Positions 24,782 to 42,052 of a stretch of DNA of 64,000 bases are shown here, piece by piece; the stretch's first letter is position 1; every line of letters begins with the position of its first letter. The position numbers and the translations under genes are program-made. The stretch lies in sequence record NZ_AP023324.1; one strand, given 5' to 3'. A model generated the notes under the pieces. The model made no database searches. It was given only the letters and a program-made list of their open reading frames with translations, and was not told the origin of the DNA. The stretch is from a plasmid.

Positions 24782-24946
24782 GAAGACTTCCTTGCGTCGT
24801 CGCGCCATTTGCAAAAATGGGCAATCAGTATCAGTGTTGAAGACGTCATGCGACGCCCGGTTCGCAGGCGCAACAAGAACGCAAATATCTATGCGTCGCG
24901 CTGCCCCAATCTTGCTCGCAGCGGGCATCTCCGCTGCGATAGAGAG

Positions 24947-24977
24947 TCTACATGTCGACGTATCGGATTGTCGGCAC
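24947..24977. repeat. Motif copy c: TCTACATGTCGACGTATCGGATTGTCGGCAC (divergent region between the guanylyltransferase and Grx-MauE genes)
   Basis: Read directly from the sequence. Confidence 0.7.
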
Positions 24978-25101
24978 TAATGGGACTGGCAAAATGGGAC
25001 ACCATTGACTCCGTACCATGGTACGTCCCCCATATGGGATGCGCACCCTCGATGGAGAAGGACGATGGCCAGCGCCGCCCCGGACCGCAACCCTGTACCG
25101 C

Positions 25102-25812
25102 ATGGTAATGGACACGCATGTCTGTCCCTATGGCCTGAAGGCCAGAGACCTACTGCGGCGCCAGGGCTATCGGATCAAGGATCATGCCTTGCGCACCCGT
25201 GAGGAAACCGACGCCTTCAAGGCCGAGCATGGCGTGAAGACCACGCCGCAGGTCTTTATCGGGGGCGAGCGGGTGGGTGGCTATGACGATCTATGTCGCT
25301 TCTTCGGCAAGCGCGTCGCCGACCCCAAGGCCACGACCTATCGCCCGGTCGCGGCGCTGTTCGCCATGACCGCGCTGATGGCGCTGGCCGCGTCGCAGGC
25401 GGTCTATGCGACGCCCCTGACCCTCCGTGCTGTCGAATGGTTCGTCGCGTTCAGCATGGCGGTGCTGGCGCTGCTGAAGCTCCAGAATGTCGAGAGCTTT
25501 GCGACCATGTTCCTGAATTACGACCTGCTCGCCAAGCGTTGGGTCCCCTATTCCTATGTCTATCCCTTTGCCGAAGGGTTGGCCGGTGTCCTGATGCTCG
25601 CCGGCGTGGCGGTCTGGGCCTCGGTGCCGATCGCGCTGGTCATCGGTGGCATCGGCGCGGTGTCGGTCGTCAAGGCGGTCTATATCGACCGGCGCGAGCT
25701 TAAATGCGCCTGTGTCGGCGGATCGAGCAACGTGCCGTTGGGCTTCCTATCGCTGACCGAAAATCTGATGATGATCGGCATGGCGCTATGGATGCTTATC
25801 CGACATGTATGA
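25102..25812 (+). CDS. Glutaredoxin-domain / MauE-DoxX-like membrane protein fusion
   Basis: The N-terminal Grx fold text is MDTHVCPYGLKARDLLRRQGYRIKDHALRTREETDAFKAEHGVKTTPQVFIGGERVGGYDDL, with a CPYG site, that is a monothiol-like variant of CPYC. It is followed by about 5 predicted TM helices with a MauE-like text. Confidence 0.6.
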   Translation: MVMDTHVCPYGLKARDLLRRQGYRIKDHALRTREETDAFKAEHGVKTTPQVFIGGERVGGYDDLCRFFGKRVADPKATTYRPVAALFAMTALMALAASQAVYATPLTLRAVEWFVAFSMAVLALLKLQNVESFATMFLNYDLLAKRWVPYSYVYPFAEGLAGVLMLAGVAVWASVPIALVIGGIGAVSVVKAVYIDRRELKCACVGGSSNVPLGFLSLTENLMMIGMALWMLIRHV

Positions 25813-25826
25813 TTGTCGACACGGGG
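25796..25826. repeat. Motif copy d: TTATCCGACATGTATGATTGTCGACACGGGG (just 5' of the recombinase gene)
   Basis: Read directly from the sequence. Confidence 0.7.
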
Positions 25827-25877
25827 ACACGTAGACTTGTGAGAGGGTTATGGGGCTGCTAGCATCGGTGTCGTCCC

Positions 25878-26838
25878 ATGGCCCGGCTGTCCCCCCTCCC
25901 CTCGCCCACGCTGCAATTGCCCGCGATCGTTGCTGCGGCGGATGAGCGGGCGCAGAAGCATTTCCTCGAATTTTTCGTCGCCACCATCCGCAATGCCCAT
26001 ACCCGGCGCTCCTATGCGCGTGGCGTGTCCGACTTCCTCGCCTGGTGCGCCGAGCGCGGTGTCGTCGCCCTCCCCAGATCGAACCGATCCATGTCGCGGC
26101 TGGATCGAGGAACTGGGCCGCGAACTGTCGGTGCCGACGGTCAAGCAGCGACTGGCGGGGATACGGCATCTGTTCGACTGGCTGGTGCGCTGTCATGTCG
26201 TGCCGACCAATCCGGCGATCTCGGTACGCGGGCCGGCCTATAGCGTTCGGCGTGGCAAGACGCCGGTGCTCGATCCCATCGAGGCGCGCGAACTGCTCGA
26301 CAGTATCGACGTGTCGACATGTATAGGGCTTCGTGATCGCGCATTGATCGGGTTGATGGTCTACAGCTTCGCGCGGGTCGGGGCGGCGCTGGCGTGCCGG
26401 GTCGAGGATGTGTTCGTCCAGAACCGCCGCCTTTGGGTGCGGCTGCACGAAAAGGGTGGCAAGCGGCATGAGATGCCGTGCCACCACAATCTCGACGAAT
26501 ATCTCCATGCCTATATCGACGGCTGCGGGCTGGCTGAGGATCGCAAGGGCTATCTGTTCCGTACCATCGCGCGCGGCACCGGCCGGCTGTCCCAGACCCC
26601 GCTGCCCCAAGCCAATGCCTATCAGATGGTCCGCCGGCGCGCGCTGGCGGCCGGGATCGGCACCGCGATCAACAACCATTGTTTCCGTGCGACGGGGATC
26701 ACCGCCTATCTGAAGAATGGCGGCACCCTCGAGCGCGCGGCCGCGATGGCCAACCATGCCTCCACCCGCACAACCCAGCTCTATGACCGGCGCTCGGATA
26801 CGGTGACGCTGGACGAGGTAGAGCGGGTGATCATCTGA
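25878..26838 (+). CDS. Tyrosine recombinase/integrase (XerC/D-phage integrase family), one frame break near 26070
   Basis: N-terminal SAM-like text ERAQKHFLEFFVATIRNAHTRRSYARGVSDFLAWC. The catalytic domain reads ...GLRDRALIGLMVYSFARVGAALACRVEDV...HNLDEY...NHCFRATGITAYL...HASTRTTQLYD, giving R..H..R..Y. Confidence 0.8.
26305..26326. repeat. Motif copy e: ATCGACGTGTCGACATGTATAG (inside the recombinase coding region)
   Basis: Read directly from the sequence. Confidence 0.6.
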
Positions 26839-26865
26839 CATGTCGGATTGTCGACATGTCGTCAG
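26835..26865. repeat. Motif copy f: CTGACATGTCGGATTGTCGACATGTCGTCAG (immediately 3' of the recombinase stop)
   Basis: Read directly from the sequence. Confidence 0.7.
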
Positions 26866-26877
26866 AAAGGGTGGGGC

Positions 26878-27250
26878 ATGGAGAATATCACGGCGAACCG
26901 ACTGGCGGCCGGATCGGTGCTGCGCTTCGCCTATCTCGCGCACCTTGCGCTGGTCTTTCCAATCTGCCTGCTATTCGGGCTGATCGGCATGATGAGCGGC
27001 GGCACGGTCTATCATAACGGCCAGACGGTTCATGGCTTGCCGGCGCTGTTCATCGCGCTGGCGCTGGGGGCCATCCTTCCCTTGCTGCCGGCCTTGTGGT
27101 TCTGGCTGGGTGTCCTGGTCCTGCGGCTCTTGCGGGGCAGGGGGCGGCCTGAGCGTCCGGCAGGACTGAAGCCTCGCTCTACCGGGCCTTTCCTTCCGCT
27201 GGTCGCAGCCGGATGGCGCCCGGCGACCCCGTCGATAGAAGCACCGCGCG
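26878..27250 (+). CDS. Hypothetical small membrane protein (2 predicted TM helices); the 3' end is uncertain because the ORF reads into the iterons
   Basis: MENITANRLAAGSVLRFAYLAHLALVFPICLLFGLIGMM...LPALFIALALGAILPLLPALWFWLGVLVL. There is no recognisable family. Confidence 0.3.
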
Positions 27251-27257
27251 CCCGGCC

Positions 27258-27357
27258 CAATTCATACTCGAAAGCACGAATTCAATCGTCCGCGAGGTGG
27301 TTTCCCCAAGGGGCAGGGCGCTGGCCCTCCCAAAGTTCGTGCTTTCGAGTATGAAAT
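27258..27357. repeat. Iteron pair upstream of repA: 27258-27288 direct and 27334-27357 inverted copy of TTCATACTCGAAAGCACGAAT
   Basis: Read directly from the sequence. This is the same 22-mer as the downstream iteron array. Confidence 0.65.
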
Positions 27358-27486
27358 CCAACATGACCCGTACGCCCACCCCGCGCGCAAAAGGACGCCA
27401 GTCCCCGATCGCCGGCCCGCCCACAGGGCGACCTGTTCCACCTCGACAGTCCGCTGACCAGCGAGATCCGGGGCGAGCGCTCGCTG

Positions 27487-28310
27487 ATGGCCTTTCCCTT
27501 CTTCGCGCTCAGCAAGACCGCGTGGATGAAGCCGCTGACCTATCATCACGCCAATGTCTCGATCGAGGTCCGCCCCTCGGCGCGGGGGGTGGCGACCATC
27601 TATGACAAGGAGATCGTCCTCTATATCGCCAGCCTGATGGCGGGAAAGATCGAGCGCGGCGAGGAGGTGGGGCAGGACTTCGTCTTCACCGCGCATGACC
27701 TGTTCTCGGTGACGAGCTCCAACCATTCGGCGCGCTCCTATCAGCGGCTGTCCGAGGCGTTGGAGCGGCTGCAGGGCACGCAGATCAAGACCAATATCGA
27801 GGCGGGCGGCGAGGGCGAAGAGGGCTTCTTCTCGGCTGTCCGAGGCGCGGCTGCATTATTCCAAGACGCGCACCGGCGAACGGCGGCTGAAGGCGGTCAA
27901 GGTGCGGCTGTGCGACTGGCTCCACCGCGCCATCCTGCGCGATCGGCAGGTGCTGGCCTATGCGCGGCCTATTTCCAGCTCGGCCCGGTCGAACGGCGCA
28001 TCTATGAGGTGGCGCGCGCGACTGCCGAGGAGGGGCGGCTGGAGATCGACGGCGACCTTCCGGCTCCAGATCGGCTATCAGAACCCACTCGCCAATTTCC
28101 GCGCCGCGATGAAGGCGATCGCGCAGGCCGACGCCATTCCCGATTACCAGGTCGAAGTCATCGAGGATGCCGAGCCCGAGGAACCCGCTGAGGGCAGGGG
28201 GCGGGGGCGGCGCGCGCCCTCCGCCCGGGTGATCGTAACCGCGCGCCCGCCAGCACTTCCGGATGAGGTTTCAGAGACACCCCGAATCACATCGGCACCC
28301 ATCGAGACGT
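27487..28310 (+). CDS. repA: Replication initiator protein RepA (RPA family of alphaproteobacterial plasmids); frame-disrupted near 27900
   Basis: N-terminal text MAFPFFALSKTAWMKPLTYHHANVSIEVRPSARGVATIYDKEIVLYIASLM... matches the RPA N-terminus pattern (F.L.K...P..Y.H..V.I.V.P...G.ATI.D.D.L.Y). It is flanked by iterons. Confidence 0.7.
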
Positions 28311-28328
28311 GATTCGCGGGGCGCGACC

Positions 28329-28479
28329 CAATTCATACTTGATAGCACGAATTATCGGCGTGAATTCATACTCGAAAGCACGAATGCTTCGCCGAATTCC
28401 TATCCGATAGCACGAATGACGCGCCCGAATTTTGTAATTCGGGCGGTGTTTTTGAATTCATACTCGAAAGCACGAATCG
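28329..28479. repeat. oriV-like iteron array: 4 direct copies of about 22 bp (28329, 28361, 28394 (degenerate), 28453) plus the inverted repeat GCCCGAATTttgtAATTCGGGC at 28423-28444
   Basis: Read directly from the sequence. Spacing is 32/33/59 nt. The array lies immediately 3' of repA. Confidence 0.7.
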
Positions 28480-28949
28480 TCACGGCTTACTTTGTTGGAG
28501 ATTTACTGCAAGGTTAACCCATATCGCGGGTCGAGACCTGTGAAGGCAGCATATGGGAGCGGTCGTGACCACATAAAGGAAAGCCCGGCACGAAGGCCGG
28601 GCATCCAGTACTACAGGAGCGACGTCGCCAAACGTCGATCCGGGGCATCACACACCCCCTCCTGATACGCCTGTCGCCCCTGCGGTTCAAGGATGCGCGC
28701 TTCGCGCCACGCCCTTTCTCGTCCTTTTTTGGTCCGGCCCCGGAAATAAGGGGAAGGAAGATGACGGCGTTCACCTTTGGTGAAGCGACGACGCGCGCTT
28801 GCGCAGGCCGCGGCCACGCGATCGGGGACATCCGTGCGCGTAGGCCATCGCACCGGCGCGCGTGTCCGCCGTGACAGCATCGAGGCGGGGACGTTCGAGG
28901 ACATGTTCTTCGCCACGCCGGCCAAGGGGAGTGTGACCGGCTGATCCGC

Positions 28950-29609
28950 ATGGCCCGCACCGCGCTCGATGCCGGTCGGCGGATCAAACGCGAGGCACGG
29001 GGGCAGGGCAGGGCGCTGACCGGCCCCGAACACGCGCTGGCCAGCCTGACGGCGGGGGCGGTGCGGGTCTATGAGGAGCTGTGCACGCTCGCCCGGCTCA
29101 ATGCGGGCCGTGTCTATCCCAGCTATGACCGCCGGCCGCCGCGACCGCGCTCGGCCGCGCCACCGTCGCGCGCGCGCTCAGATCTGGAGGAAGCTGGCTT
29201 CCTCGTCCGCCAGCGCCGGTTCCGCCGGGTGGAAGGCGAGGGGCCGGGGCCGCGCTGGGAACAGACCTCCAACGCCTATCGGCCGGTCGTGCCCAAGCAG
29301 CTGTTATCGCTATTACCCCGCTGGCTCCGCCCCGCCCCGGTTCCCGACGATGCCCTTCAGCATGTGGCGGAGCAGGCCGAGGAACAGGAACGGCTCAAGG
29401 CGCAACTGACCTGTCGCGAACTGGCGCAGTTCACCGTGGGGGGAGCGCTAGGCCGCGTACTGGCCCGGCTGGGCATTGCGATTGATCGACAGATGCCCGT
29501 GCGAGAGTCTCATGCCGATCCTGAACCCCTCCCCAGTTTATTTGAGAAGGAGAATAAAGCCTCCCCCTTGCCAGGTGAGACGCCCCTTAGTGGCCATGAG
29601 ACCACGTAG
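28950..29609 (+). CDS. Hypothetical protein in the plasmid-maintenance block. It is preceded by a translationally coupled small ORF (about 28757-28936) with a strong AAGGGGAAGGAAG RBS.
   Basis: 219 aa with no recognisable family. Arg-rich N-terminal text ...ALASLTAGAVRVYEELCTLARLNAGRVYPSYD suggests DNA binding (weak). Confidence 0.3.
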   Translation: MARTALDAGRRIKREARGQGRALTGPEHALASLTAGAVRVYEELCTLARLNAGRVYPSYDRRPPRPRSAAPPSRARSDLEEAGFLVRQRRFRRVEGEGPGPRWEQTSNAYRPVVPKQLLSLLPRWLRPAPVPDDALQHVAEQAEEQERLKAQLTCRELAQFTVGGALGRVLARLGIAIDRQMPVRESHADPEPLPSLFEKENKASPLPGETPLSGHETT

Positions 29610-29783
29610 AACGCCCACCGCAAACGACATAACTAGGGGAAATGACGGGAAGCGCCGGCTTCGCCGACGCCATGCTCCCTAGAAGGAGCAAGCGGATCCG
29701 TCAGCCTGTCTTTCGGCCTGTTTGGTGATGTGGAGGAGGAGAGTGGAAATAAGCCTGATCCGGCCATCATGTGCCGTTTCCTA

Positions 29784-29834
29784 CTCGACACGTCGGCCTG
29801 TCGACATGTAGTCTATATGACATGCCGACAATCG
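29784..29834. repeat. Motif copy g: CTCGACACGTCGGCCTGTCGACATGTAGTCTATATGACATGCCGACAATCG (spans the parA start)
   Basis: Read directly from the sequence. Confidence 0.7.
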
Positions 29835-30472
29835 CGATCATCAGCCAAAAGGGCGGTGCGGGAAAAACGACCTTGGCCATCCATCTTGCCGCCGCAGGAC
29901 AGGAAGTGGGACAGGTGTCGCTCATCATCGACACCGATCCCAGGGCGACCGCCAGCCAATGGGCGTCGGCGCGAGGACGCGCCCCCCGAAGTCATCGACA
30001 GCCCACCTCCACGCCTCGCCGCCAAGGTCGAACAGGCCAGGGGGCAGGGGGCCAAGCTGATCGTCATCGACACGCCGCCCCATGCCGATAGCGCCGCCCG
30101 CGCCGCAGTCGAGGCGGCCGACTGGTACTGATCCCCTGCCGTCCGAGCGCCTTCGACCTCTCGGCGATCCAGACGACCGCCAAACTGGTCCAGCTGCTGC
30201 GCAAACCAGCCTTCGTCGTGTTCACCGCCGGCAACCCCAACGCGCCGCGCGTCTATGCCGAGGCGGGCGAACTGGTCGAAAGCTATGGCACCCCGCCATG
30301 CCCCGTCCTGATCCCCGACCGGGCCGCGTACCGCCACGCCTCGGCGGAGGGGCGCACCGTCATGGAAACCGAACCGGCGGGCAAGGCGGCCGAAGAAATT
30401 CGTGAACTCTACAAGTGGACATGTCGACAACTAGACCTGCCCGTCGCTCGTTTTAAGAAGGTCCCTGCATGA
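29822..30472 (+). CDS. parA: ParA/Soj-family partition ATPase (2 frame breaks)
   Basis: MPTIAIISQKGGAGKTTLAIHLAAA (deviant Walker A)...IIDTDP...LIVIDTPPH...PSAFDLSAIQTTAKLV...IPDRAAYRHASAEGRTVME. Confidence 0.8.
30418..30435. repeat. Motif copy h: GGACATGTCGACAACTAG (3' end of parA)
   Basis: Read directly from the sequence. Confidence 0.6.
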
Positions 30473-30743
30473 GCCGCAAACCCAGCTTCGCCAATCTGCG
30501 CGATCGTACCGCGCCAGTCGCGGCGCAAGCCCATCAAACTCCGTTACTAATAGCGATGATGGAAGAGCCAGTCGTCCTGCTAGTCGAGAGGGCCGCAAAC
30601 AGATCGCTGGCTTCTTCACGCCTGAAATGTCTTTAGCAATGCATATGATGGCACGACGGCAGGGGCGAAGCCTTCAGGCGCTAATGGCAGAGGCGTTTGA
30701 CGATGTGCTGCGCAAATATGGGGAAAGCCCGGTGGGGGGATGA
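30469..30743 (+). CDS. Small ribbon-helix-helix (ParG/CopG-like) partner of ParA (one frame break)
   Basis: Its start overlaps the parA stop (ATGA). The C-terminal text is KQIAGFFTPEMSLAMHMMARRQGRSLQALMAEAFDDVLRKYG, typical of RHH centromere-binding proteins and antitoxins. Confidence 0.5.
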
Positions 30744-30761
30744 GACTGTGCCTTTTGAGAC

Positions 30762-31823
30762 AGGCTAGAGCAGATTCCGATCAGTATGCATCGTATCCGG
30801 CAGCGGCGAAGTAGTTGGCGCATTCGGCGGGCGTGAAGGTGTCGATGGCGGCACCTATGGCGCGGGACAGATCGTCGACGGTTTGTGCAGCGGCTTTGCG
30901 CAGGAGTGCTTTCAGCTTGGCGAAGGCGTTTTCGATCGGATTGAAGTCGGGCGAGTAAGGCGGAAGGAAGAGCAGCCGGCGCCCCTTGCCTCGACCGCCT
31001 CCCGCGCCGCGACGCTTTTGTGGGCGGGCAGGTTGTCCAGGATCACAACGTCGCCCCGTTTCAGCGTTGGAGCGAGTACCCGGGCAACCAGGCCTCGAAC
31101 CACGCCCCGGTCATCGGTCCGTCGATGACGAGCGGTGCGGTCATGCCCGAGAGCCGCAAGCCACCGACGAACGTGGTCGTCATCCAGTGTCCGTGCGGTA
31201 CAGCCATGCGCAGCCGTTCGCCACGTGGAGCGCGTCCATAGCGGCGTGCCATCTTCGTACTGGCACCCGTCTCATCGACGAAGACCAGCGTTTCCGGATC
31301 GAGGTCGAGCTGGCCATCGAACTAGGCCTCGCGCGCGCTCAGGACGTCGGGGCGGTCCTGTTCCTGCGCGTGGCCAGTCTTTTTTTGCGCGTATGCCCGT
31401 GACGGGCGAAGAAGCGCCACAGCGTCGATACCGCGACCGCGATCCCCTCGGCGGCCAGGCCCTCGCGCAGCTCGGCAAGAGTGATGTCGGGAGCCGCCTC
31501 GCACAGCGCCCAGATGCGCGCCGCCTTGGCCTCGGTCGTGGCCGAGCGCGTGTCACCGTCCTGCGGCTTGGCCGCTGGCTTTCCCTGATCGCGCTGAAGG
31601 GCCACCCACCTCACGGCACTGGCTGCGCTGACCCCGAACCGTGCGCGGCCGCCCGGCGTGACATGCCTCCCGAAATGGCACCAACAACCCGCTCGCGCAG
31701 GTCCATCGATAACGGCTTGCCCATCTGACCGGCCTCCCCTCGCCGGGGACGAGCATGAATCAGACTTCACTCCCTTTGGGAATCCCTCAACGATTCACAC
31801 TGATCGGATTTTGCTCTAACCTA
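30762..31823. mobile_element. IS630-family insertion sequence (about 1.06 kb) with about 22-bp imperfect terminal IRs
   Basis: IRL GGCTAGAGCAGATTCCGATCAG (30763-30784) versus the reverse complement of the right end GGTTAGAGCAAAATCCGATCAG (about 31800-31821). TA follows the right end. The internal transposase is of IS630 type. Confidence 0.7.
30785..31727 (-). CDS. IS630-family transposase (several frame breaks)
   Basis: N-terminal HTH ...FGVSAASAVRWVALQRDQGKPAAKPQDGD...TLAELREGLAAEGIAVAVSTLWRF. The DDE region reads ...VVILDNLPAHKS...LPPYSPDFNPIENAFAKLKALLRKAAAQTVDDL. Confidence 0.7.
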
Positions 31824-31964
31824 TCAGCGGCCTGAAAATGGGGAGCACGTCAACCTGCTATGACTACCGCATAATCCATTTCACTGCCTTTGCCTATTTC
31901 ACCGCTCTCGCAATCTATCTACATCGAATGGTGATTGACTTTAAATCAAGTCTTACTACCTCAA

Positions 31965-33154
31965 TCAGGTCGTAGCAATCGCATACCGAGGAAGTTCACT
32001 TTGATTATTAACAATAACTTCAGCGCGGGCAACTTCATATGCAAAATTACGCAGAAAATGACCTCGAGCAAAACGCTGTGCATTAGTGATCGCAGCCTCT
32101 GGGTCAAAGCTTGGGAGCCAAGTATCAAAGCGATTTAGTGCGTCGATCAGCGATTCTGCGGTCTGTTCATAAAAGTGAATGCCTGTCACGCCATCGATCA
32201 CTGTTTCCGTGCCGCCTCCGCGGCCGAAGACGACGACCGGACGACCAGCTGCCTGAGACTCGACCGGAATGATGCCGAAGTCTTCTTCGGCAGTGAAAAT
32301 CAGTGCGGAGGCTCGAGCATAGGCAGCCCGTAGGTCGTCGAAGCGCATCCGCGTGGTAAAGCGCACGTTTGGACCAGCTCGTGCCTTCAGCATTTTTAAC
32401 ATTGGGCCATCGCCGATGACGTGCAGTTTGCGGCCGGTTCAGTGAAGGCATCAACTGCTATATCAGGGCGCTTATAGGGAACGAGTTGGCTGATCCAGAC
32501 GCACTCGTCGCTGACATCGTCCGTTCGTTGGAACAGGTCGACATCGACTGGCGGATAGACGACGCTGGCATCACGCCCCCAGAATTTGCCGATGCGACGC
32601 CGGACAAACTGGCTATTGGCAATGATGAGGTCGGGTCGTGAGGCGCTTGAGCGGTCCCAGGCACGCATACGCGGCGCAATCAATTTCAAGTACAGCCCGG
32701 CCAGACGCCCGCTGGCAGCTCGATAGGCATGATACTGATCCCACAGATACCGCATAGGCGAATGGCAATAAGTGACGTGAATCGCGTCGGGTCGGGTGAT
32801 CACGCCTTTAGCCGGGCCAGCCTCACAGCTAATGACCAAGTCGTAGGCGCTGAGGTCGAGCGCCTCAAGCGCACCAGGCATTAGTGGGAGGTATTTCTGA
32901 TATTGTCTCCGGGCGAAGGGTAGCTTGGCAATCGCTGTCGTAAAGATACGGTGTCGCTTAATAGTCTGCGACAAGGCGGAATGATCGACAACATGGGTGA
33001 AAATGTCGGCATCCGGGTACAAGTCACAGATTCGCTCCAGTACGCGTTCACCACCGCGCATTACCACCAGCCAGTAATGGATGATGGCGACCTTGCGAGG
33101 CCTGACTGGAGCAGGAGCAGGGACGTCAGGCATCGGGGGCAGGGCGGAGGTCAT
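31965..33154 (-). CDS. GT4-family glycosyltransferase (frame break near 32400); the 3' region is AT-rich
   Basis: C-terminal text ...FTAEEDFGIIPVESQAAGRPVVVFGRGGGTETVIDGVTGIHF (the E-x7-E region). The N-terminal half reads VAIIHYWLVVMRGGERVLE. Confidence 0.7.
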
Positions 33155-33223: not shown

Positions 33224-34236
33224 TTACAGGCGGGGCGGCGTTTCCTGCTGGTCTAGCAGGGTCGCCTGCGCCACCCATCGCCGTCCACCTTGCCCAAGCG
33301 CGAGGCCGAAGGCCGGCAACAGGCCGAGCTGTTTCATGACGAGATAGGCTATAACCGGCGCGCCCATGCCGATCGCCGTGCACAGGACGAGATACAGCCA
33401 ACTGATGGGCGGCACGTGCAAGATTTTCATCAAAATGATTCGCGCACCAGCGCCGGCAAGAATATGCATGACGTAGATTGCCATCGACATGGTACCGATC
33501 GCCACCAGCGCGGCCACATGTTCCAGCCGCTGCGAAATCCATAGCATCACCACGATCCCACCGATAGCGGCAGGCAGCATGAGTACGGAGTTGTAGTTGC
33601 TGAAGCCATGATGATGGGCGACGGCGATGGCGGCGGCGCCCAGCAGCGTTAAGCCCGCCGCAACCCCGCCACCTATGCGTAGCAGGTCACGCAGCTTCGG
33701 ACGACCCATCGCCATTCCCGCAACGAAGAAGATCGGAAAATGTAGTAATTGATGGCCAAAATTGTCTTTCGGTAGCCATTCTCCGATCAGGAAGGCAGCC
33801 AAGGCGGGACGAAGAATAGCGGCAGTGGCAGGACGCTGGCCAGCATCATGAACAGGAATAGCGCATATAAGAACCAGAAAGGTGAAATAGGTGCCCAGGC
33901 GATGTAAAGCATTTGACGGGGGTCAAAGGCATTGTTGGTGACATGGCTGAGTACGGTCATGATGGTGCCCGACAATAGAGACCAGAGCACATAGGGATAC
34001 AGCACGGAGGCGATTTTGCTGCGTCGAAAATAGGTCATCCCTTTGCCAAGGCTGTTTGGCACGTTGAGACCGGCCAAAAACATGAACAGTGGCATATGGA
34101 ATGTGTACAGCGCGAAATCGAATAACTGCCAGCGGACATCCCGAAGCGTCCCCGCCGACACCAACCCACGCTCCATGTGGCCGAGCACGACCAGGAATAT
34201 TCCTATACCCTTCGAGGCATCCTGGGGGCACCTCAA
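33224..34236 (-). CDS. Acyltransferase-3 family membrane O-acyltransferase. Its first approximately 30 codons lie at 42058-about 42150 on the far side of the transposon.
   Basis: ...DASKGIGIFLVVLGHM...FHMPLFMFLAGL... is followed by multiple TM helices. The reading frame continues across the Tn boundary: RC of 42058-42150 gives ...LTNQPPSPQRWPTTSPQVYETATNKLSRSARYIWQ|DASKG. Confidence 0.7.
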
Positions 34237-34266
34237 GGTTTGTCATATGGACAGCGGCAGTCGGAA
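34224..34266. repeat. Tn3-family left terminal inverted repeat
   Basis: See the transposon entry; it starts with the GGGG typical of the family. Confidence 0.8.
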
Positions 34267-34370
34267 CAAATGGTCAACAAAAGCCTGAGCGTTGCCGCAA
34301 AGTATATTAAGTTTCGTGGGTTTGTGAGGTTGGACGAGTTGGAAGTTACCGGATCACCTCTCGTGATGTT

Positions 34371-35194
34371 TCACCCGCGGAGCTCGTAGTAGACGATCTG
34401 CCATCCATTCTTGGGACCGCGCCACTGGGTGATCTGAAAGCTATGGGCTTGTGCAGACCCGTCGAGGACGCGGCTACTCCACCGTAGCGTTTCATCGTAA
34501 CTGCTTCCGGACGATAACGCACCCGCTATGCGCCGAATGGGCAGCTTGGCGGGGAGCCTGCGGATGCGTCGGCCATCGTTGCCGACAAAGATAACGTCTT
34601 CGGCCACGCTTCGTCTTGGAACAGCCAACCAGTCGACCTGTTTGCCGGCCTGCTCCTGTCGCAAAACAGACGCGATCTCTTTCGCATCGCTAACGGCTTG
34701 GATTTGGAGCTGTTCATTGGTGAGTTTTGCCGAGCACTCAGGTTCGATCGCTTGTAAACTTTCTGCCGCTAATGCCTTCGATCCATCCCGACGATAGTCG
34801 TCGATTTCCAGCGCCACCCCTCAGCACTGTTCCGCCAAAGCGTCTTATATGATCCAACTCGATTTCCGCCATCGTACAGCCCGCCGATAACAACTGCCGA
34901 CCCGCTCGGATCACAGGACGGAAAGACAAGTTCGGGTCTGCGCTCGGCATGGCTCTCGACACTCATCATTGTGAGCCACCACCTTCGGCTACTCTCGGCT
35001 GCTTGCAACATGCTGGCCACAGATGGAGAGCGCGCGGTTTCGGGCGCATGTTGTATTGGCCAGGGGTCGCTTTGTGGACCGAAACTGCGTGCCGCTGCCT
35101 GACGGCCACTGGCAAGTACAGCTTCCGAGTAGGCCCGCTCCGCCTCCAGCGCGGAATTCGGCGAACTTGCCGCTAGTAGAAGCGCGAAGATCAT
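34371..35194 (-). CDS. Secreted hypothetical protein with two NTF2-like/DUF4440-like halves (one frame break near 34800); transposon cargo
   Basis: Signal peptide MIFALLLAASSPNSA. Each half ends in a DUF4440-like text: ...VGSYKTLWRNSAEGWRWKS and ...SFQITQWRGPKNGWQIVYYEL. Confidence 0.4.
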
Positions 35195-35214
35195 GGCGAA
35201 ATCCTACTCCTCAA

Positions 35215-35818
35215 TCAACGTGTCGAGCGATGTACGGGCATCTGCGCCGGATGGTTGAGCGCCCGATAGAGCGTGGCATGATGACACTTCAGCAGCTTCG
35301 CCGCTTCGCGCACCGATGTGCCTTCGCCGACGAGACGCTGTCCGAGCGCGATCTGGTCCGGAGTGAGCTTGGGCTTACGCCCGAACTTCACGCCGCGCGC
35401 CATGGCTGCCGCGCGGCCGGAACTGGTACGCTGGTGGATCAGCTCGCGCTCGAACTCCGCGATGCCGGCGAACACGGTGAGCACCATGCGTCCCGCAGGC
35501 GTGGTCGTGTCGGCCCGGGCTCGGCGAGCGAGCGCAGCCCGCTCCCGCCTCGTTCAGCTTCTCGGCGATGTCGAGCAGGTCGCGCGTCGACCGCGCTAGG
35601 CGATCGAGCCGGGTGACCACAACCACGTCGTCGTCGCGCAGCTGCTCCAGCATCCGGTCGAGTTCCGGTCGGGCGCGCTTGGCGCCGGACACCTTCTCCT
35701 CGAATGTCCGCCGGCATCCGGCCGCCTTCAGTGCCGTCTTTTGAAGCGTGAGATCCTGATCGTCGGTAGATACGCGCGCATAGCCGAGGAGCATGTCGCA
35801 GATGTGCATTGGAACACG
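35215..35818 (-). CDS. Serine recombinase (resolvase/invertase family); frame break near 35480
   Basis: MLLGYARVSTDDQDLTLQKTALKAAGC...VVVVTRLDRLARSTRDLLDI...VLTVFAGIAEFERELIHQRTSSGRAAAMARGVKFGRKPKLT...C-terminal HTH. Confidence 0.8.
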
Positions 35819-35929
35819 GCTGATTAGCAACAGACATTTGCGACAGCGTCCGCCCTCGTGGCGTGACCGGTTGTAAACGCTCGCGCTAAGTGGCGGCATT
35901 CTGATCGCGCTATTTGTCGGCGAGCGTCG

Positions 35930-36506
35930 CTACGCGGCTACCGGCTTGGTCTCGGCCGATCGCACATAGGCGTAGAGTGTTGGCTTGGAGATGCCGAGCA
36001 TCGAGCAAATCTTGGCGATCGGCATCGTGTTCTCGTGGTAGAGCCTGACGGCGGTCGCGCTTGTCCTTGCCGAGTGCGGCCGGCCGGCCACCCTTCTTGC
36101 CGCGAGCGCGGGCTGCGGTGAGACCGGCACGGGTCCGCTCGCGGATCAGGTTGCGCTCGAACTCCGCCAATGCCCCGAACAGGTGGAAGGTAAGCTTGCC
36201 CGACGTGGTGGTCGTGTCGATCGCCTCGTGCAGGCTCAGCAGCCCGACCTTTTCCTCGTCGAGGTAGGTCATCCATCCGATCAGATCACGGAGCGAGCGG
36301 CCGAGCCTGTCGAGGCGCCAGACCACCAGTGTGTCGCCGGCGCGAAGCAGCTCCTTCACCTTTTCCAATCCAGGGCGAGCGGCAGTCGCCCCGGAGGCCT
36401 TGTCGGTGATGACCTTCTCGCAGCCGGCAGCCTTCAGCGCATCACGCTGGAGGTCCGGTTCTGCTCGGCGGTCGATACGCGGGCGTAACCGATTTTCATG
36501 CGTAGG
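35930..36506 (-). CDS. Second serine recombinase (resolvase family); 2 frame breaks
   Basis: (M)KIGYARVSTAEQN...LQRDALKAAGCEKVITDKASG...LVVWRLDRLGRSLRDLI...LFGALAEFERNLIRERTRAGL. The C-terminal HTH is recovered as ...AVRLYHENTMPIAKICSMLGISKPTLYAYV. Confidence 0.75.
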
Positions 36507-36611
36507 GCCGGTGGCGCCCGATCGGGCGCGGTTTGGGAAGAAAGTCGTCATCGGCAGGTCTATGTTGCCCTAGTTTTCTTTACCGGGTAGATTTACGTCG
36601 AACAGGCCGGT

Positions 36612-38080
36612 TTGGCAACGCGAGCGGACTCGCATGGCGATGGGCAGGCAAATCTCCGTTTTCCTTACCTGCGACACGGACCGTCGGCGGTGACGCATCC
36701 GGCGCTTGTCCCGCCGCTGGCGATCGAGCGCTACCGCGTCCTTGAACCGCACCTCGCCGATGGCATCCCGCTCGCGGACCTCGCCCGCACCGGCACGCTG
36801 AGCGAGCGGACGTTGCAGCGCTGGCTCGGGCGCTACCGTGCCGAAGGACTTGCCGGTCTCGCGCGTCTGCCGCGCAACGATCGGGGCAGGCTGCACCTGC
36901 CGGAACATCTGGTCGAACTGACCCGCACTCTCGCCACCAAGCGCCCGCGACCCCCGGTCGCCGCCATTCACCGAAAGGTGCAGGAACTCGCCATCGCGCA
37001 TGGACACCGAACCCCCAGCTATGCGGCCGTCGCGCGTGTCGTCAGGGCGATACCGGCAAGCCAGATCGCCGCAGCCTCCGATCCGGCCGTCTACCGCGAC
37101 CAGCACGAGCTAGTGCATCGGCGCGAAGCCGCGACCTCGAACGAGATGTGGCAGGCCGATCATACCGTTCTCGACATTCTCGTGCTCGATGATGCCGGAA
37201 CCCCGGTGCGTCCTTGGCTGACCGTCATCGTTGACGATCACAGCCGAGCCATCGCCGGTTACTTCCTCAGCCTCGATGCCCCCAGTGCCCTCAACACGGC
37301 GCTCGCCTTGCGGCAGGCGATCTGGCGCAAGCCCAATCCCGAATGGATCGTCAGCGGCATTCCCGAACAGCTTTACGTCGACAACGGCTCGGATTTCATC
37401 TCCGAGCATATCGAGCAGGCGTGCATCGCCCTCAAAATCCGCCTCATCCATTCGCTGCCGGGGCGTCCTCGCGGGCGCGGCAAGATCGAGCGGCTGTTCC
37501 GCACCATCAACGACATGTTCCTGCCCGACCTGCCCGGCCACCTGATCGCGGGCAAGCCGCTGTCGGCGCCAGTGCTCACGCTCGACGAGCTGCGCGCCCG
37601 CTTCGAGGCGTTCGTGTGCGGCGTCTATCATCGTCGCCCGCATGGCAGCACCGGCGAACCGCCGATCACGCGCTGGCAGAAGGGCGGGTTCCTGCCCGCA
37701 ATGCCCGACAGCCTTGAACAGCTCGACATGCTGCTCGTGCACGTGCCCAAGCCCCGTAAAGTGCTGCGCGACGGCATCCGTCTGATGGGCAGGCGCTATG
37801 TCGAACCCACGCTCGCGGCCTTCGTCGGCGAGCAGGTCGAGGCGGTCTATGACCCCGCGACCTGACCGAGATCCACGTCTACCACCAGGGGCCGGTTCGT
37901 CTGCCGTGCGCTCAGCTCCGAGCACGCTGGGCACCCGTCGTTGCGCGCGATCCAGCGCGCCCGGCGCGGCGCGAAGGAGCGCGACAAGCAGGTGCCTGCC
38001 CCCACGGAGACCTTCGATGGCGACCAAGAGGATACGGCTTCCCGGCCCACCACCTACCGAGGGCTCCGGCTCTACGCCGC
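36612..38080 (+). CDS. TniA-like DDE transposase (Tn5053/Tn402 TniA or TnsB-type integrase core); the start and C-terminus are uncertain
   Basis: MWQADHTVLDILVLDDAGTPVRPWLTVIVDDHSRAIAGYF...YVDNGSDFISEHIEQA...RPRGRGKIERLFRTIN. It is followed by a TniB-like ATPase. Confidence 0.65.
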
Positions 38081-38893
38081 TGACGATTGAGTTCCTGGTC
38101 GAGCAGCCGTTCACGGCGACCCGCGAACATGCCCGGTTCGTCGAGTTTGCCGAAGCCTGCGCGCACTACCGCTATATCGGCGTGTGTCATGGCCGGCCGG
38201 GCGTCGGAAAGACGCGATCGGCGCGCGAGTTTTCCAGCTTCCCCGACCGGGGAATATGCCGCGCTCCGTCCCATTGCCGCGCTCCTTGGCGAAAAGGTCG
38301 CTCGCTGCCGCGCCGTCTTCTACACCGTGTCGGTCAGCAACACGCCCAAGACGATCGACGCGGTGTTGGGCCTCAACCTCATTAAGCTGGGCTATGCCCG
38401 GCTGACGGTCGCGGGCGGCTCGCAGGACGAAATCACCCATGACGCCGCCCGCATCGCCTGCCCCCTCGTCATCGTCGACGAGGCCGACCGCCTGACCATA
38501 AAGTCGCTCGAACATCTCCGCGACATGGCCGATCGCCACGGCTTCGGGCTGATCCTGATGGGTATGCCGGGCTTGGAGAAGCGCCTCGCCCGCTATGCCC
38601 AGCTCTACTCGCGGATCGGCTTCGTCCACGAGTTCAAACCGCTTACCGAGACCGAAATGCGGCTGCTGCTCGCGACCCACGCCGGCGATTTCGGGATCAG
38701 CTTCGACCCGGCCCAACTCGACGCGATCGAAGCGCAGGCAGCCGTGATCCGCATCACGCGCGGCAACTTCCGGCTCATGGAGCGCCTGTTCGCGCAGATG
38801 CGGCGGATCATGACCCTCAACCGCGTCGAGGAGGTCACCGCTGACATCGTTCAGGCCGCGCGCGATTGCCTCGTCATCGGACCCGGCAACTGA
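38016..38893 (+). CDS. TniB-like AAA+ ATPase (transposition helper); frame break near 38240
   Basis: Walker A ...YRYIGVCHGRPGVGKTRSARE. Walker B region LVIVDEADRLTIKSLEHLRDMADRHGFGLILMGMPGLEKRLARY. Confidence 0.65.
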
Positions 38894-39030
38894 CAAATAG
38901 CGCGATCAGAACGCCGCCATTTAGCGCGAGCGTTTACAACCGGTCAGGGCCGCTGTCACGAAACTTGAGAGTTACGCGACACCTCGCACGTGTCGGCCAT
39001 AAACTATACGCTCCCGGACAGGGGTGATCG

Positions 39031-41989
39031 ATGGCCAGACGCGATCTGTTAACGGGCGACGAACGCCGCGCGTTGTTCGGCGTGCCCCTCGACCATGCCT
39101 CGCTCGCCAAGCATTACACGGTTGCCGATGAGGACCGGCCACTGATCGAAGCGAAGCGCGGCGACGCCAACCGGCTCGGCTTCGCGCTGCACCTCGCCCT
39201 GCTGCGTCATCCCGGCTTCGGCATACGCCACGACGATGTCGTCCCCGATTTTCTGATCCGGCACCCGCGCAACTCGACATCGCGCCCACAGCGTTCGAGG
39301 GCTACGCGCATCGCGCCCAGACCCGGCTCGAACACGCACGGGAGGCGATGGAGCGTTTGCGCCTGCGCGCGTTCGAGGCGGCCGACGTCCCCGGCGCGCT
39401 CGGCGCAGCCACCCGCGCGGCGGAAGCGACCGAACGGGGCAAGCCGATCGCCGCGGCAGTGCTGGGCCATTTGCGTGCTGCCCGGATCGTTCTGCCCGCG
39501 CCCGCCCGTATCGAGCGGATCGGGGTGGCGGGGCGCGCCATGGCGCGCCGCCTCGCGGCCGACACGCTGGTCGATGCGCTTGCTCCGGAGCAGGTGACGG
39601 GGCTGGATGCGTTGCTGATCGTGGACCAGGATCGCAGCACGACGCCGCTCGCGTGGCTGCGCGACACGTCGGACAGCCCGACCGCGCGCAATCTCGCCGG
39701 CATTCTCGCCCGGCTCGCGCACGTGCGCCGGCTCGGGCTCGACCCGGGCATGGCCGGCCGCATCCACGAGCACCGCTTCGAGCAGCTCGTGCGCGAAGGC
39801 CACGTCGCGCCCGCGTTCCTCCTGTCCGACTACTCGCTCCGCAGAAGGCGCGCGACACTCGCCGCAGCCGTCATCGACACGGAAGCGCGGCTCGCGGACG
39901 CCGCGATCGAGATGTTCGGCAAGCAGACCGGCCTCCTGTTCGCCAGGGCGGGGCCGCGCAGAAGCGCGGCATCGAGGCGACCACACGCGACGTGAACCGG
40001 CTCATGCGGCTGCTGGGCGCCACGGTCGGCGCACTCCGGGTCGCGCGCGAGGACGGGTTGGACGTCTGGGCGGCGCTCGACGACGGGGTGGGCTGGACGA
40101 GGCTTCTGGACGCCGAGAGCGAGGCGACCGCGATCGCCGACCTGACTCGCGACGAGCCGCTGATCCGCGCGGCGGGGCGCTACATGACGATGCGGCGCTA
40201 CGCGCCCGCGTTTTTTGACGCGTTCCGGTTCAAGGCGGCAGGCTCGCGCGACGGCGTGCTCGGCGCGATCAAGGTCGTGCGCGCGCTGAACGCGACCGGG
40301 CGGCGAGACGTACCGGCCGATGCGCCCATGCCGTTTTCCAGAAAATGGAAGGCGGCGATCACCGAGGGCGGCGTCATCGACCGCCGTCGCTACGAAACCG
40401 CCACGGTCGCGACCGTGCGCGAGCGGCTCCAATCGGGCGACCTGTGGGTGGAGGGTACGCGCGAACACCTGCGCTTCGACAGCTATATGCTCCCGCCCGG
40501 CAAAGCGGCCGAGATCGCGCTCACGCTGCCGTTCGACACCGACGTCGGCCGCTACTTGGAGGGGCGCGCCAGGCTGCTCGACTGGCGGTTGCGCCGGTTC
40601 GCAGGCTCGCTGAAGCGCGGCACGCTCGACGGCGTGGAGCTGCGGGGCGGTAACCTCAGGGTCAGCCCGCTCGCGGCCGTAACGCCCGCTGCGGCCGACA
40701 GGCTGGACGCGGCCGTCGACCGGCTCATGCCCCGCGTGCGCATCACCGAGCTGCTCGCCGAGGTGGAAGCCCGCACCGGGTTCCTGTGCGCATTTCCGGA
40801 ACTGCGCTCGGGCCGCGCCCACTCCAACCCGCAGGCCGTGCTCGCCGCGATCGGCAGACGCGACGAACCTCGGCATCGAGCGCATGGCCAACGCCAGCCG
40901 GGCGTCACCTACGCCCAGCTCGCCTGGACGCATGGCTGGTACGTATCGGAAGAGAATTACGCGGCAGGGCTGCGCCATCTGGTGGACGCGCAAGCCGCGC
41001 TGCCGCTCACGCGCGTGTGGGGCGACGGCACCGCGTCGAGCTCGGACGGGCAGTTCTTCCGCTCGGGCAGGCGGGGCGCGGCCGGCAGCACCAACGCGCG
41101 CTACGACCGGGAGCCGGGGCAGAAGATCTACGCCCATGTCGCCGATACCTACGCGCCCTACCATGTCCGGCTGATCTCGGCGACCGCGGCGGAGGCGCCC
41201 TATGTGCTGGACGGGCTGGTCGCGCACGGCTGCGGCATCGAACCCGCGACCCACTATGCCGATACGGGCGGCGCGTCCGACCACGTGTTCGCGCTCGCGC
41301 ACCTACTCGGCTTCCGGTTCGTGCCCCGCCTGCGCGATCTAGCCGATCGCCGGCTCGGCCTGTTCCCGGGCACGGCCCGCCCCGAGGCGCTCGCGAAGCT
41401 GATCGGGCGCCCGTTCAACATCGCTGCCATCCGCGAAAGCTGGGACGAGATCGTCCGGCTCGCCGCGTCCGTGAAGGCCGGCGTGGTGCTACCGTCGGTC
41501 ATGCTGAAGAAGCTGGCCGCGTACCGTCGCCAGAACCGGCTCGACTTCGCGCTCCAGGAGCTGGGCCGGATCGAGCGCACCCTGTTCACGCTCGACTGGC
41601 TAGAATCCAGGGCGCTCCGCCAGCAGTGTCAGGCTGGGCTCAACAAGGGCGAGGCGCGTCACACGCTCGCCCAAGCCGTGTTCGTCCACAAACAGGGCCG
41701 CCTGCGCGATCCGCAGTTCGAGAACCAGGCGCTGAAAGCGTCCGGGCTGACGCTGGTCACCGCCGCGATCGTGTACTGGAACACGCTTTACATGGGCCGC
41801 GCCGTCGAGCATCTGCGCGCCAGCGGCGAGCCCGCGCCCGACGAGCTGCTCGCCCATGTAGCCCCGCTAGGCTGGCGACACATCAGCCTGACCGGCGATT
41901 ACCTCTGGCAAAACGCCGCTGCCGAGCTCGATCAAGACGGCTACCGCGCACTCAACATCGCCGGCGGACCCGGAGCCAAGGTGGCCTGA
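39031..41989 (+). CDS. tnpA: Tn3-family transposase TnpA (about 985 aa); 2 frame breaks (about 39290 and about 39960)
   Basis: N-terminal DUF4158-like MARRDLLTGDERRALFGVPLDHASLAKHYTVADEDRPLIEAKRGDANRLGFALHLALLRHPG. The long C-terminal DDE region reads ...TGGASDHVFALAHLLGFRFVPRLRDL...LVTAAIVYWNTLYMGRAV. Confidence 0.85.
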
Positions 41990-42009
41990 GCCGCCCTGTT
42001 CGCTACCTG

Positions 42010-42052
42010 TTCAGCTTACCGCTGTCCGTGTCACAAACCTTGAGGTGCTCCC
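42010..42052. repeat. Tn3-family right terminal inverted repeat
   Basis: Reverse complement matches IRL at about 36 of 43 positions. Confidence 0.8.

Follow-up and report, generated by a model that had tools for sequence, protein, structure and literature searches.

Classical iteron plasmids such as pPS10, F, P1, pSC101 and RK2, and likewise small Paracoccus plasmids, combine a winged-helix initiator with phased direct repeats (iterons) that form the origin, and autorepression makes use of an inverted, sometimes partial, iteron located at the start codon or promoter of rep (PMC3832669). In sphingomonads, replicons whose initiator belongs to the RPA family have been classed as iteron-type (PMC5144681), a classification given to sphingomonad and Azospirillum RPA replicons alike (PMC5144681; bioRxiv 10.64898/2026.09.14.751567). 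For example, the Sphingobium plasmids pUT1 and pPDL2 pair iterons with an RPA-type initiator that has RPA and Rep_3 domains, and a fragment of pPDL2 holding repA and the iteron/oriV region suffices for autonomous replication in sphingomonads (PMC3516476); on plasmid pTK3 of Sphingobium sp. TKS, the 'type 1' replicon encodes a 319-amino-acid (aa) RPA RepA with iterons right after its stop codon (Tabata et al. 2016, PMC5144681). Here we consider a replicon of this general kind in a 64,000-nucleotide stretch of sequence record NZ_AP023324.1 (the window, with position 1 its first letter), where a repA gene lies between two sets of iterons at 27258–28479. It is very probable, in our assessment, that this locus is the theta-type, iteron-controlled basic replicon of plasmid pKira_1 and that the frameshifts seen in its repA gene are errors.

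The iteron, TTCATACTCGAAAGCACGAAT, is a 21-mer as written, not the 22-mer of the original prediction, which had otherwise placed the repeats correctly. With up to three mismatches allowed, it occurs five times in the window, all within 27261–28477, and 100 shuffles gave no match. Two copies lie 5' of repA, one of them inverted, as had been predicted: U1 (27261–27281, plus strand) is exact and forms the first arm of an inverted pair that is conserved in related loci, and U2 (27335–27355, minus strand, one mismatch) ends 7 nt before the repA ATG. The two arms are 100% complementary over 20 nt and stand 55 nt apart, a gap that recurs in the related loci L004, L005 and L007. Four direct copies on the plus strand lie 3' of repA, namely D1 (28332–28352, two mismatches), D2 (28365–28385, exact), D3 (28397–28417) and D4 (28457–28477, exact). 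D3 is degenerate, with four mismatches and the GATAGCACGAAT part kept, and is identical in the closest plasmid, 'unnamed2' of Sphingomonas paucimobilis FDAARGOS_908 (NZ_CP065671.1). In other words, the four downstream copies that had been described at 32–33-nt phasing are three good copies and a degenerate one, and their start-to-start spacings are 33, 32 and 60 nt, such that the first three alone are in phase.

The 60-nt gap of the array is occupied by an inverted repeat, CGCCCGAATT-TTGT-AATTCGGGCG followed by GTGTTTTT (28422–28445, with the T-run extending to 28454; plus strand), that has 10-bp arms and a 4-nt loop, folds at −19 kcal/mol (z = −4.0) and scores as intrinsic-terminator-like on the plus (repA) strand. 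This repeat had been counted as part of the origin; it is present, but it looks like a repA terminator and not an origin element, and the repA transcript probably ends at the hairpin with its T-run. Where relatives have five iterons at regular spacing, one of these sits at the position of the inverted repeat.

All six iterons are identical between the window and NZ_CP065671.1 while the spacers between them carry substitutions, which argues for selective constraint on the repeats. The arrangement is also widespread. When one genome per species was scanned for RepA relatives, 168 were found, and the best 80 of these 168, which are 70–100% identical, lie nearly all on contigs of Sphingomonas, Sphingobium and Novosphingobium, mostly 40–200 kb in length. 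An inverted pair plus a direct array recurs in nearly all of 84 related loci (RepA 70–100% identical), a recurrence that bears out the prediction of an iteron-type replicon with an RPA-family RepA. In these loci, a 14-nt iteron core, CTCGAAAGCACGAA, forms a plus/minus inverted pair that is ∼70 nt start to start and ends at the repA start, and three to five direct copies follow, starting 3–90 nt past the repA stop at 31–33-nt spacing; the last copy is often set off by a wider interval, of 52 or 62 nt, and the window shows such an interval too. Alignment of 70 regions upstream of repA shows conservation limited to the two iterons. The replicon is a typical member of a little-described sphingomonad replicon cluster that is very widespread among Sphingomonas, Sphingobium and Novosphingobium. 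The comparison gives the iteron consensus and layout for this cluster, which is of use in typing plasmids, predicting incompatibility and designing vectors.

How does this locus compare with the described systems? The replicon of pTK3 has a RepA of the same length and the same placement of iterons, and yet the two RepA proteins are only 29% identical, and the pTK3 iteron, TCGGGGTTTCACACACCG, is unrelated and phased at 22–23 nt as opposed to 32–33 nt; we therefore rejected an assignment to pTK3 type 1. The pTK3 array itself (L088:956–1200) holds six copies of TCGGGGTTTCACACACCG directly after the RepA stop, four of them at 22–23-nt spacing. On pUT1 and pPDL2, repA is preceded by the iterons together with an A+T-rich stretch and a DnaA box, and the RepA protein is 367 aa long, whereas here the direct array is downstream, a DnaA box was not found and RepA has 319 aa. 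With the classical iteron plasmids, the resemblance is one of organization: a winged-helix initiator, phased direct repeats and inverted copies at the rep start. Sequence similarity is weak or absent (Rep3_N matches RepA at just 1e-5), the inverted copies are full-length and 55 bp apart where classical plasmids have a tight palindrome, and the iteron spacing is three helical turns where theirs is two. A sequence search against solved structures returned nothing for RepA. Literature searches found nothing specific on Mega-RPA, rep_cluster_1131 (the cluster to which NZ_CP065671.1 is typed), sphingomonad minimal replicons or antisense RNAs, and no iteron description for rep_cluster_1131 plasmids, for which database annotation covers only the protein.

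Iteron replicons are recognized by at least three helically phased direct repeats of ∼17–22 bp beside the rep gene, of which there are four here at 28332–28477, and by inverted iterons at the rep promoter or start, a place taken here by U1 and U2, whose regulatory role is predicted. Taking well-studied iteron plasmids and predicted alphaproteobacterial origins as models, we propose that monomers of RepA, a winged-helix protein of the RPA family, would bind the four direct 21-bp iterons just 3' of repA, which would constitute oriV. Since the iterons are spaced at ∼three helical turns, the downstream copies would present themselves on the same face of the DNA. RepA would then open the adjacent stretch of lower G+C content and recruit the host replisome. 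The inverted iterons bracketing 55 bp before the repA start would serve as the operator for autorepression by RepA, making U1 and U2 its putative autoregulation site, and copy number would be held down by handcuffing, in which RepA bridges the two iteron sets of one plasmid or the iterons of two sister plasmids. The hairpin and T-run within the array would terminate the repA transcript.

The candidate unwinding region in this scheme is a stretch of lowered G+C content that adjoins D4 (28478–28540) and carries the semi-conserved sequence GCTTCC...TGTTGGA...CTGCAA; across 28320–28540, that is, the array and the following 60 nt, the G+C content drops from ∼65% to 42–50%. No repeated 13-mers were seen in the region, and its sequence conservation is weak. 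The original prediction spoke of a complete origin, and although the iteron arrays are certainly there, that wording is overstated, as a DnaA box was not found and the A+T-richness is relative.

Several observations weigh against the reading of this locus as the plasmid's working iteron origin. The 'A+T-rich' region is a modest one, lowered only in relation to the ∼65% G+C content of its surroundings. A search for DnaA boxes (TTWTNCACA, up to one mismatch) gave none in 24816–32005, and the window-wide count equals that expected by chance; DnaA boxes are common, not universal, in iteron origins. A scan of 26800–28800 gave no sigma-70-type promoter for repA, and related loci do not share the sequence that separates the two inverted iterons. 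The literature yielded no autonomous-replication test for any member of this RepA cluster. The origin is adjoined by a conserved winged-helix gene whose product weakly resembles the N-terminal domain of RepC. Additionally, ∼15.5 kb of pKira_1 is outside the window, and a second replicon could be located there.

The main alternative concerns the role of the downstream array; does it initiate replication, or is it a copy-control (incompatibility) locus like incA of P1, with initiation taking place elsewhere, for example at the inverted pair or further downstream in the vicinity of the structured block? The P1 iterons that lie 3' of repA titrate the initiator and do not fire, and this precedent fits the position of the array here, as does the lack beside it of either a DnaA box or a strongly A+T-rich unwinding element. 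We nevertheless consider an incA-like role unlikely because the upstream region, with only two inverted copies around a G+C-rich, non-conserved spacer, is a poor origin candidate. Moreover, the sole phased direct array and the sole dip in G+C content are both downstream, and pTK3, also a sphingomonad plasmid of the RPA type, has its sole iteron array just 3' of repA as well. We therefore favor the downstream array as the putative oriV.

The initiator gene of this replicon, repA (27363–28312, plus strand), belongs to the Pfam family RPA (PF10134), as had been predicted. The frame-stitched protein of the window matches profile positions 2–228 of 228 at 2e-54 (184.9 bits), and the intact homologue, the 319-aa 'replication initiator protein A' encoded by NZ_CP065671.1, scores 5.7e-57 (193.4 bits), where the gathering threshold is 27 bits. 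As sequenced, the gene passes through three reading frames. Six deletions, amounting to 10 nt in total (at 27379, 27389, 27403, 27834, 27964 and 28051), explain every frame change, and once they are filled, the open reading frame (ORF) runs without a stop; compared with the intact homologue, it has 26 codons with synonymous and 4 with non-synonymous differences. Because the repaired frame is open and the substitutions are predominantly synonymous, repA is almost certainly intact in the real plasmid, as an ORF of 319 codons.

Where do the frameshifts come from? The genome was assembled from nanopore R9.4.1 reads with Canu and polished with Pilon, with a BUSCO completeness of 32% before polishing, and the genome announcement lists pKira_1 as "repA, absent" (PMC7883840). 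Compared with NZ_CP065671.1, the window has 164 indels, 135 of which (82%) are deletions in the window. These indels are not randomly placed: 27% are within 5 nt of a CCWGG site versus 2% of random positions, and 61% touch a homopolymer of at least three bases versus 27% of random positions. CCWGG sites occur at a density of 1.62 per kb in the window, as against 2.68 per kb for NZ_CP065671.1. Deletions of 1–2 nt at CCWGG sites or homopolymers are found, for example, at 27834, 28051, 29968, 23518 and 23777. This pattern fits nanopore error at methylated motifs (Dcm-type) and homopolymers. The damage extends well beyond repA, in that 26 of the 33 coding sequences shared with NZ_CP065671.1 are broken in the window, including the recombinase gene, repA, the winged-helix gene, parA and the ribbon-helix-helix (RHH) gene. 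Judging from the sequence, the repA frameshifts are uncorrected nanopore or assembly errors and not decay, because most of the shared genes are broken in the same manner and because CCWGG sites and homopolymers are where the indels concentrate; it is owing to such errors that repA appears broken and was published as absent.

One could instead suppose that repA is a true pseudogene and the iterons are relics, and that maintenance of the plasmid falls to a different replicon, located in the ∼15.5 kb beyond the window or acting through the winged-helix protein. Six frame-breaking deletions, the published absence of repA and the weak matches of the winged-helix protein family to the RepC N-terminal domain would all suit such a history. 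We judge it highly improbable given that the breakage of genes common to the sister plasmid and the concentration of deletions at CCWGG sites and homopolymers carry the signature of sequencing, that repA substitutions are mostly synonymous and that the iterons are perfectly conserved between variable spacers. Thus pKira_1 has a normal RepA–iteron replicon, correcting the published "repA, absent". The deposited sequence of pKira_1 still has many nanopore indels that break most of its genes, which calls for caution when mining its exopolysaccharide, RHS/PAAR and autotransporter genes.

The original prediction had left two settings for this replicon, a plasmid contig or a plasmid integrated into a chromosome, and the first of these is right. 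A 219-aa ORF at 28950–29606, left over from the truncation of a frameshifted gene, matches BCI72881.1 (SPKIRA_37110, '(plasmid)') with 100% identity; this protein forms a single-member cluster and comes from a 79,575-bp plasmid record. The plasmid in question, pKira_1 (AP023324), is described as circular and 79,575 bp long in an assembly of S. paucimobilis strain Kira that comprises a chromosome and two plasmids, and the 3.9-Mb chromosome was assembled separately from pKira_1 (PMC7883840). The sister plasmid NZ_CP065671.1 is circular, closed and 76,480 bp long, and the entire 64-kb window is collinear with it at 94–98% identity, the record origin being crossed too; for 27200–28520, the nucleotide identity is 96% over 100% of the segment. 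Collinearity with a circular plasmid, together with a truncated protein that is unique to pKira_1, means that the contig is a plasmid and not an integrated element, and the replicon is the basic replicon of pKira_1. As a consequence, the exopolysaccharide genes, the RHS/PAAR genes (previously called a type VI secretion system, T6SS, effector) and the autotransporter are placed on a plasmid.

Large or integrated contexts for this kind of replicon do exist. A RepA homologue in Sphingomonas desiccabilis (locus L022; NZ_SDPT01000001.1, 621368–628321) has the full iteron layout on a 1.76-Mb contig, which may reflect integration, a chromid or an error of assembly. That example gives some substance to the idea of a plasmid integrated into the chromosome, which for the present locus we regard as scarcely credible: the match to a closed circular 76.5-kb plasmid covers all 64 kb and continues across the origin of that plasmid, the window has no chromosomal flank or segment and no tRNA, and the source record is a circular plasmid that is separate from the chromosome.

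The replicon of pKira_1 was assigned to rep_cluster_1131 by similarity to its members, the five closest plasmids that were fetched all being typed rep_cluster_1131. Along with NZ_CP065671.1, rep_cluster_1131 plasmids include those of S. taxi STP1 and S. hengshuiensis and pSZ.B2R2_2 of S. hankookensis. The order recombinase, repA, iterons, winged-helix gene, parA and RHH gene is shared with the window. Apart from the indel errors, the window differs from NZ_CP065671.1 in that it has a 7.8-kb Tn3-family insertion (34224–42052), lacks the galU/IS5 segment and the copy of insertion sequence (IS) IS3 and has a stretch of ∼1 kb replaced. The original prediction described a backbone minus conjugation genes, a verdict that goes beyond what the window covers, as NZ_CP065671.1 encodes a MobF relaxase in a segment beyond the counterpart of the window.

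Between the last iteron and the winged-helix gene lies a non-coding block that is more conserved than repA and that an anchor search recovered in 82 of 86 loci. We have identified in this block a three-hairpin element (28568–28661) that is a candidate for a small antisense RNA of ∼95 nt on the minus strand, with covarying hairpins and a terminator-like end. Read on the minus strand, the element begins with a 5' hairpin whose sequence is fully variable between loci with its pairing kept; it continues with a second hairpin, CGACG-N8-CGTCG, for which there are compensatory variants, and it closes with an invariant, GC-rich and terminator-like hairpin, GCCCGGC-CTTCGT-GCCGGGC, with TTTCCTTTAT (alternatively given as UUUCCUUUAU) after it. 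Ahead of the element on the same strand is a promoter-like motif (28662–28690) consisting of a −35 sequence TTGAAC (28685–28690), a 17-nt spacer and a −10 sequence TATCAG (28662–28667), given as reverse complements, and just upstream of the −35 sequence is a conserved palindrome, GCGCG-CTT-CGCGC (28695–28707), that is a possible operator. The consensus across loci is CTTGAA-N17-GTATCW / TTGAAC-N17-TATNNG at fixed spacing, preceded by GCGCG-N3-CGCGC, and of 74 unique sequences, 72 have the −35/−10-like motif with its 17-nt spacing, which two further replicon families share.

The hairpins show covariation. A covariance model had to be seeded by hand because MAFFT with RNAalifold missed the variable hairpin, and this model found the element in 80 of 86 sequence sources (the window and 85 loci), always antisense to repA. 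Double changes occur at 14 of 27 base pairs; the observed values were not attained in any of 500 shuffles, and controls with slid pairing partners fell far lower. In the 5' hairpin, all six pairs show double changes. The winged-helix gene is directly downstream in 76 of 77 loci with enough sequence. In other replicon families, a diverged motif and block precede homologues of the winged-helix gene, and on plasmid pDE3 the motif and block are present with no repA nearby. A permissive Rfam scan of 27000–29200 gave best scores of 15–24 bits against thresholds of 45–70, covering the terminator hairpin alone.

On these grounds, we give about an even chance to the proposal that a ∼95-nt RNA is expressed from the minus strand (28661 to 28568) as a countertranscript that controls the winged-helix gene. 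The likeness is to countertranscript RNAs (ctRNAs) such as the repABC ctRNA upstream of repC and CopA of R1, which are also short and structured, have their own promoter and intrinsic terminator and run antisense in the non-coding region before a plasmid maintenance gene, beside the origin. In contrast to these ctRNAs, the candidate RNA precedes a gene for a winged-helix protein and not for an initiator, and it has no Rfam match at threshold. If the proposal is correct, RNA control would be added to an iteron plasmid, as in repABC plasmids, by a previously undescribed antisense RNA; this candidate is the sole part of the locus that could add new biology.

Which strand is the functional one, and is the element RNA at all? 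Of 72 sequences, 65 have the better fold on the minus strand, a figure that is confounded by the G+U richness of that strand. Single-sequence folding z-scores favor neither strand, and in the variable hairpin, wobble pairs outnumber A–C pairs 37 to 29, a moderate lean toward the minus strand. With folding energies confounded and z-scores non-discriminating, the strand call is based on the promoter and terminator signals, and the strand assignment is not secure. The block may instead act as DNA, serving the winged-helix protein as an operator or providing a single-strand initiation site, or it may be the folded plus-strand mRNA leader of the winged-helix gene, and we see this as a real possibility that falls somewhat short of an even chance. 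A large share of the block, one hairpin loop among it, does not vary, as would suit recognition by a protein; the plus strand also folds significantly (z = −4.3), and the wobble and A–C counts are nearly balanced. Moreover, the loop of the second hairpin is inverted to its exact reverse complement with the stem kept in two loci (L020:1843–1935 and L026:4173–4281; TCGCCAAA versus TTTGGCGA), a typical DNA-hairpin event. An expressed antisense RNA accounts better for the terminator-like hairpin and U-tract at the end of the minus strand and for the promoter-like motif at its fixed spacing. Additionally, pairing in the 5' hairpin has been kept through complete sequence turnover, which argues that this hairpin is not a sequence-specific protein site. 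Within the same block, the plus strand of the invariant hairpin with its flank (28583–28602) reads GGAAAGC-CCGG-CACGAAG, in which a short insertion divides the iteron core GAAAGCACGAA, with GCACGAA at the loop.

The replicon is part of a conserved module made up of a recombinase gene (variable), repA, the iterons, the non-coding block, the winged-helix gene, parA and an RHH gene. In the window, all of these genes are on the plus strand and the flanking ones are frameshifted, as is repA. The tyrosine recombinase (25878–26838) is a candidate multimer resolvase. The winged-helix gene (28761–29609) belongs to the Pfam family HTH_36, and its 3' ORF is the one annotated as BCI72881.1. The partition ATPase gene parA (29822–30472) is followed by the RHH gene (30469–30743), whose product is the probable centromere-binding partner.

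The searches assigned no role to the winged-helix protein. It scores 14 bits against RP-C, for which the cut-off is 24.4, and one distant homologue reaches 26.2. A repABC replicon, defined by an operon of repA (parA), repB (parB) and repC in which RepC is the initiator and repC contains the origin, was rejected on account of this sub-threshold RP-C score and of the gene order, RPA repA, winged-helix gene, parA and RHH gene. NCBIfam offered nothing useful for the winged-helix protein, and a sequence search of solved structures gave only a marginal match (E = 0.11). When an AlphaFold model (mean predicted local distance difference test score, pLDDT, of 73) was compared with the PDB by Foldseek, only generic winged-helix matches were obtained, among them CodY, MarR and staphylococcal RepA_N initiators at E ∼0.01–0.1. 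The winged-helix gene stays beside repA even where parA is missing, as on pSZ.B2R2_2 of S. hankookensis.

Two segments of the window bear the marks of mobile elements. The stretch at 30764–31800 is only ∼90% identical to an IS630-family transposase region of NZ_CP065671.1, with dense compensating indels, so that either the IS copy has diverged or sequencing errors are unusually dense here. The right end of the insertion at 34224–42052 is a Tn3-family transposase region that is at least 99% identical to plasmids of S. naphthae and Sphingomonas sp. gentR and to pKira_2, the other plasmid of strain Kira.

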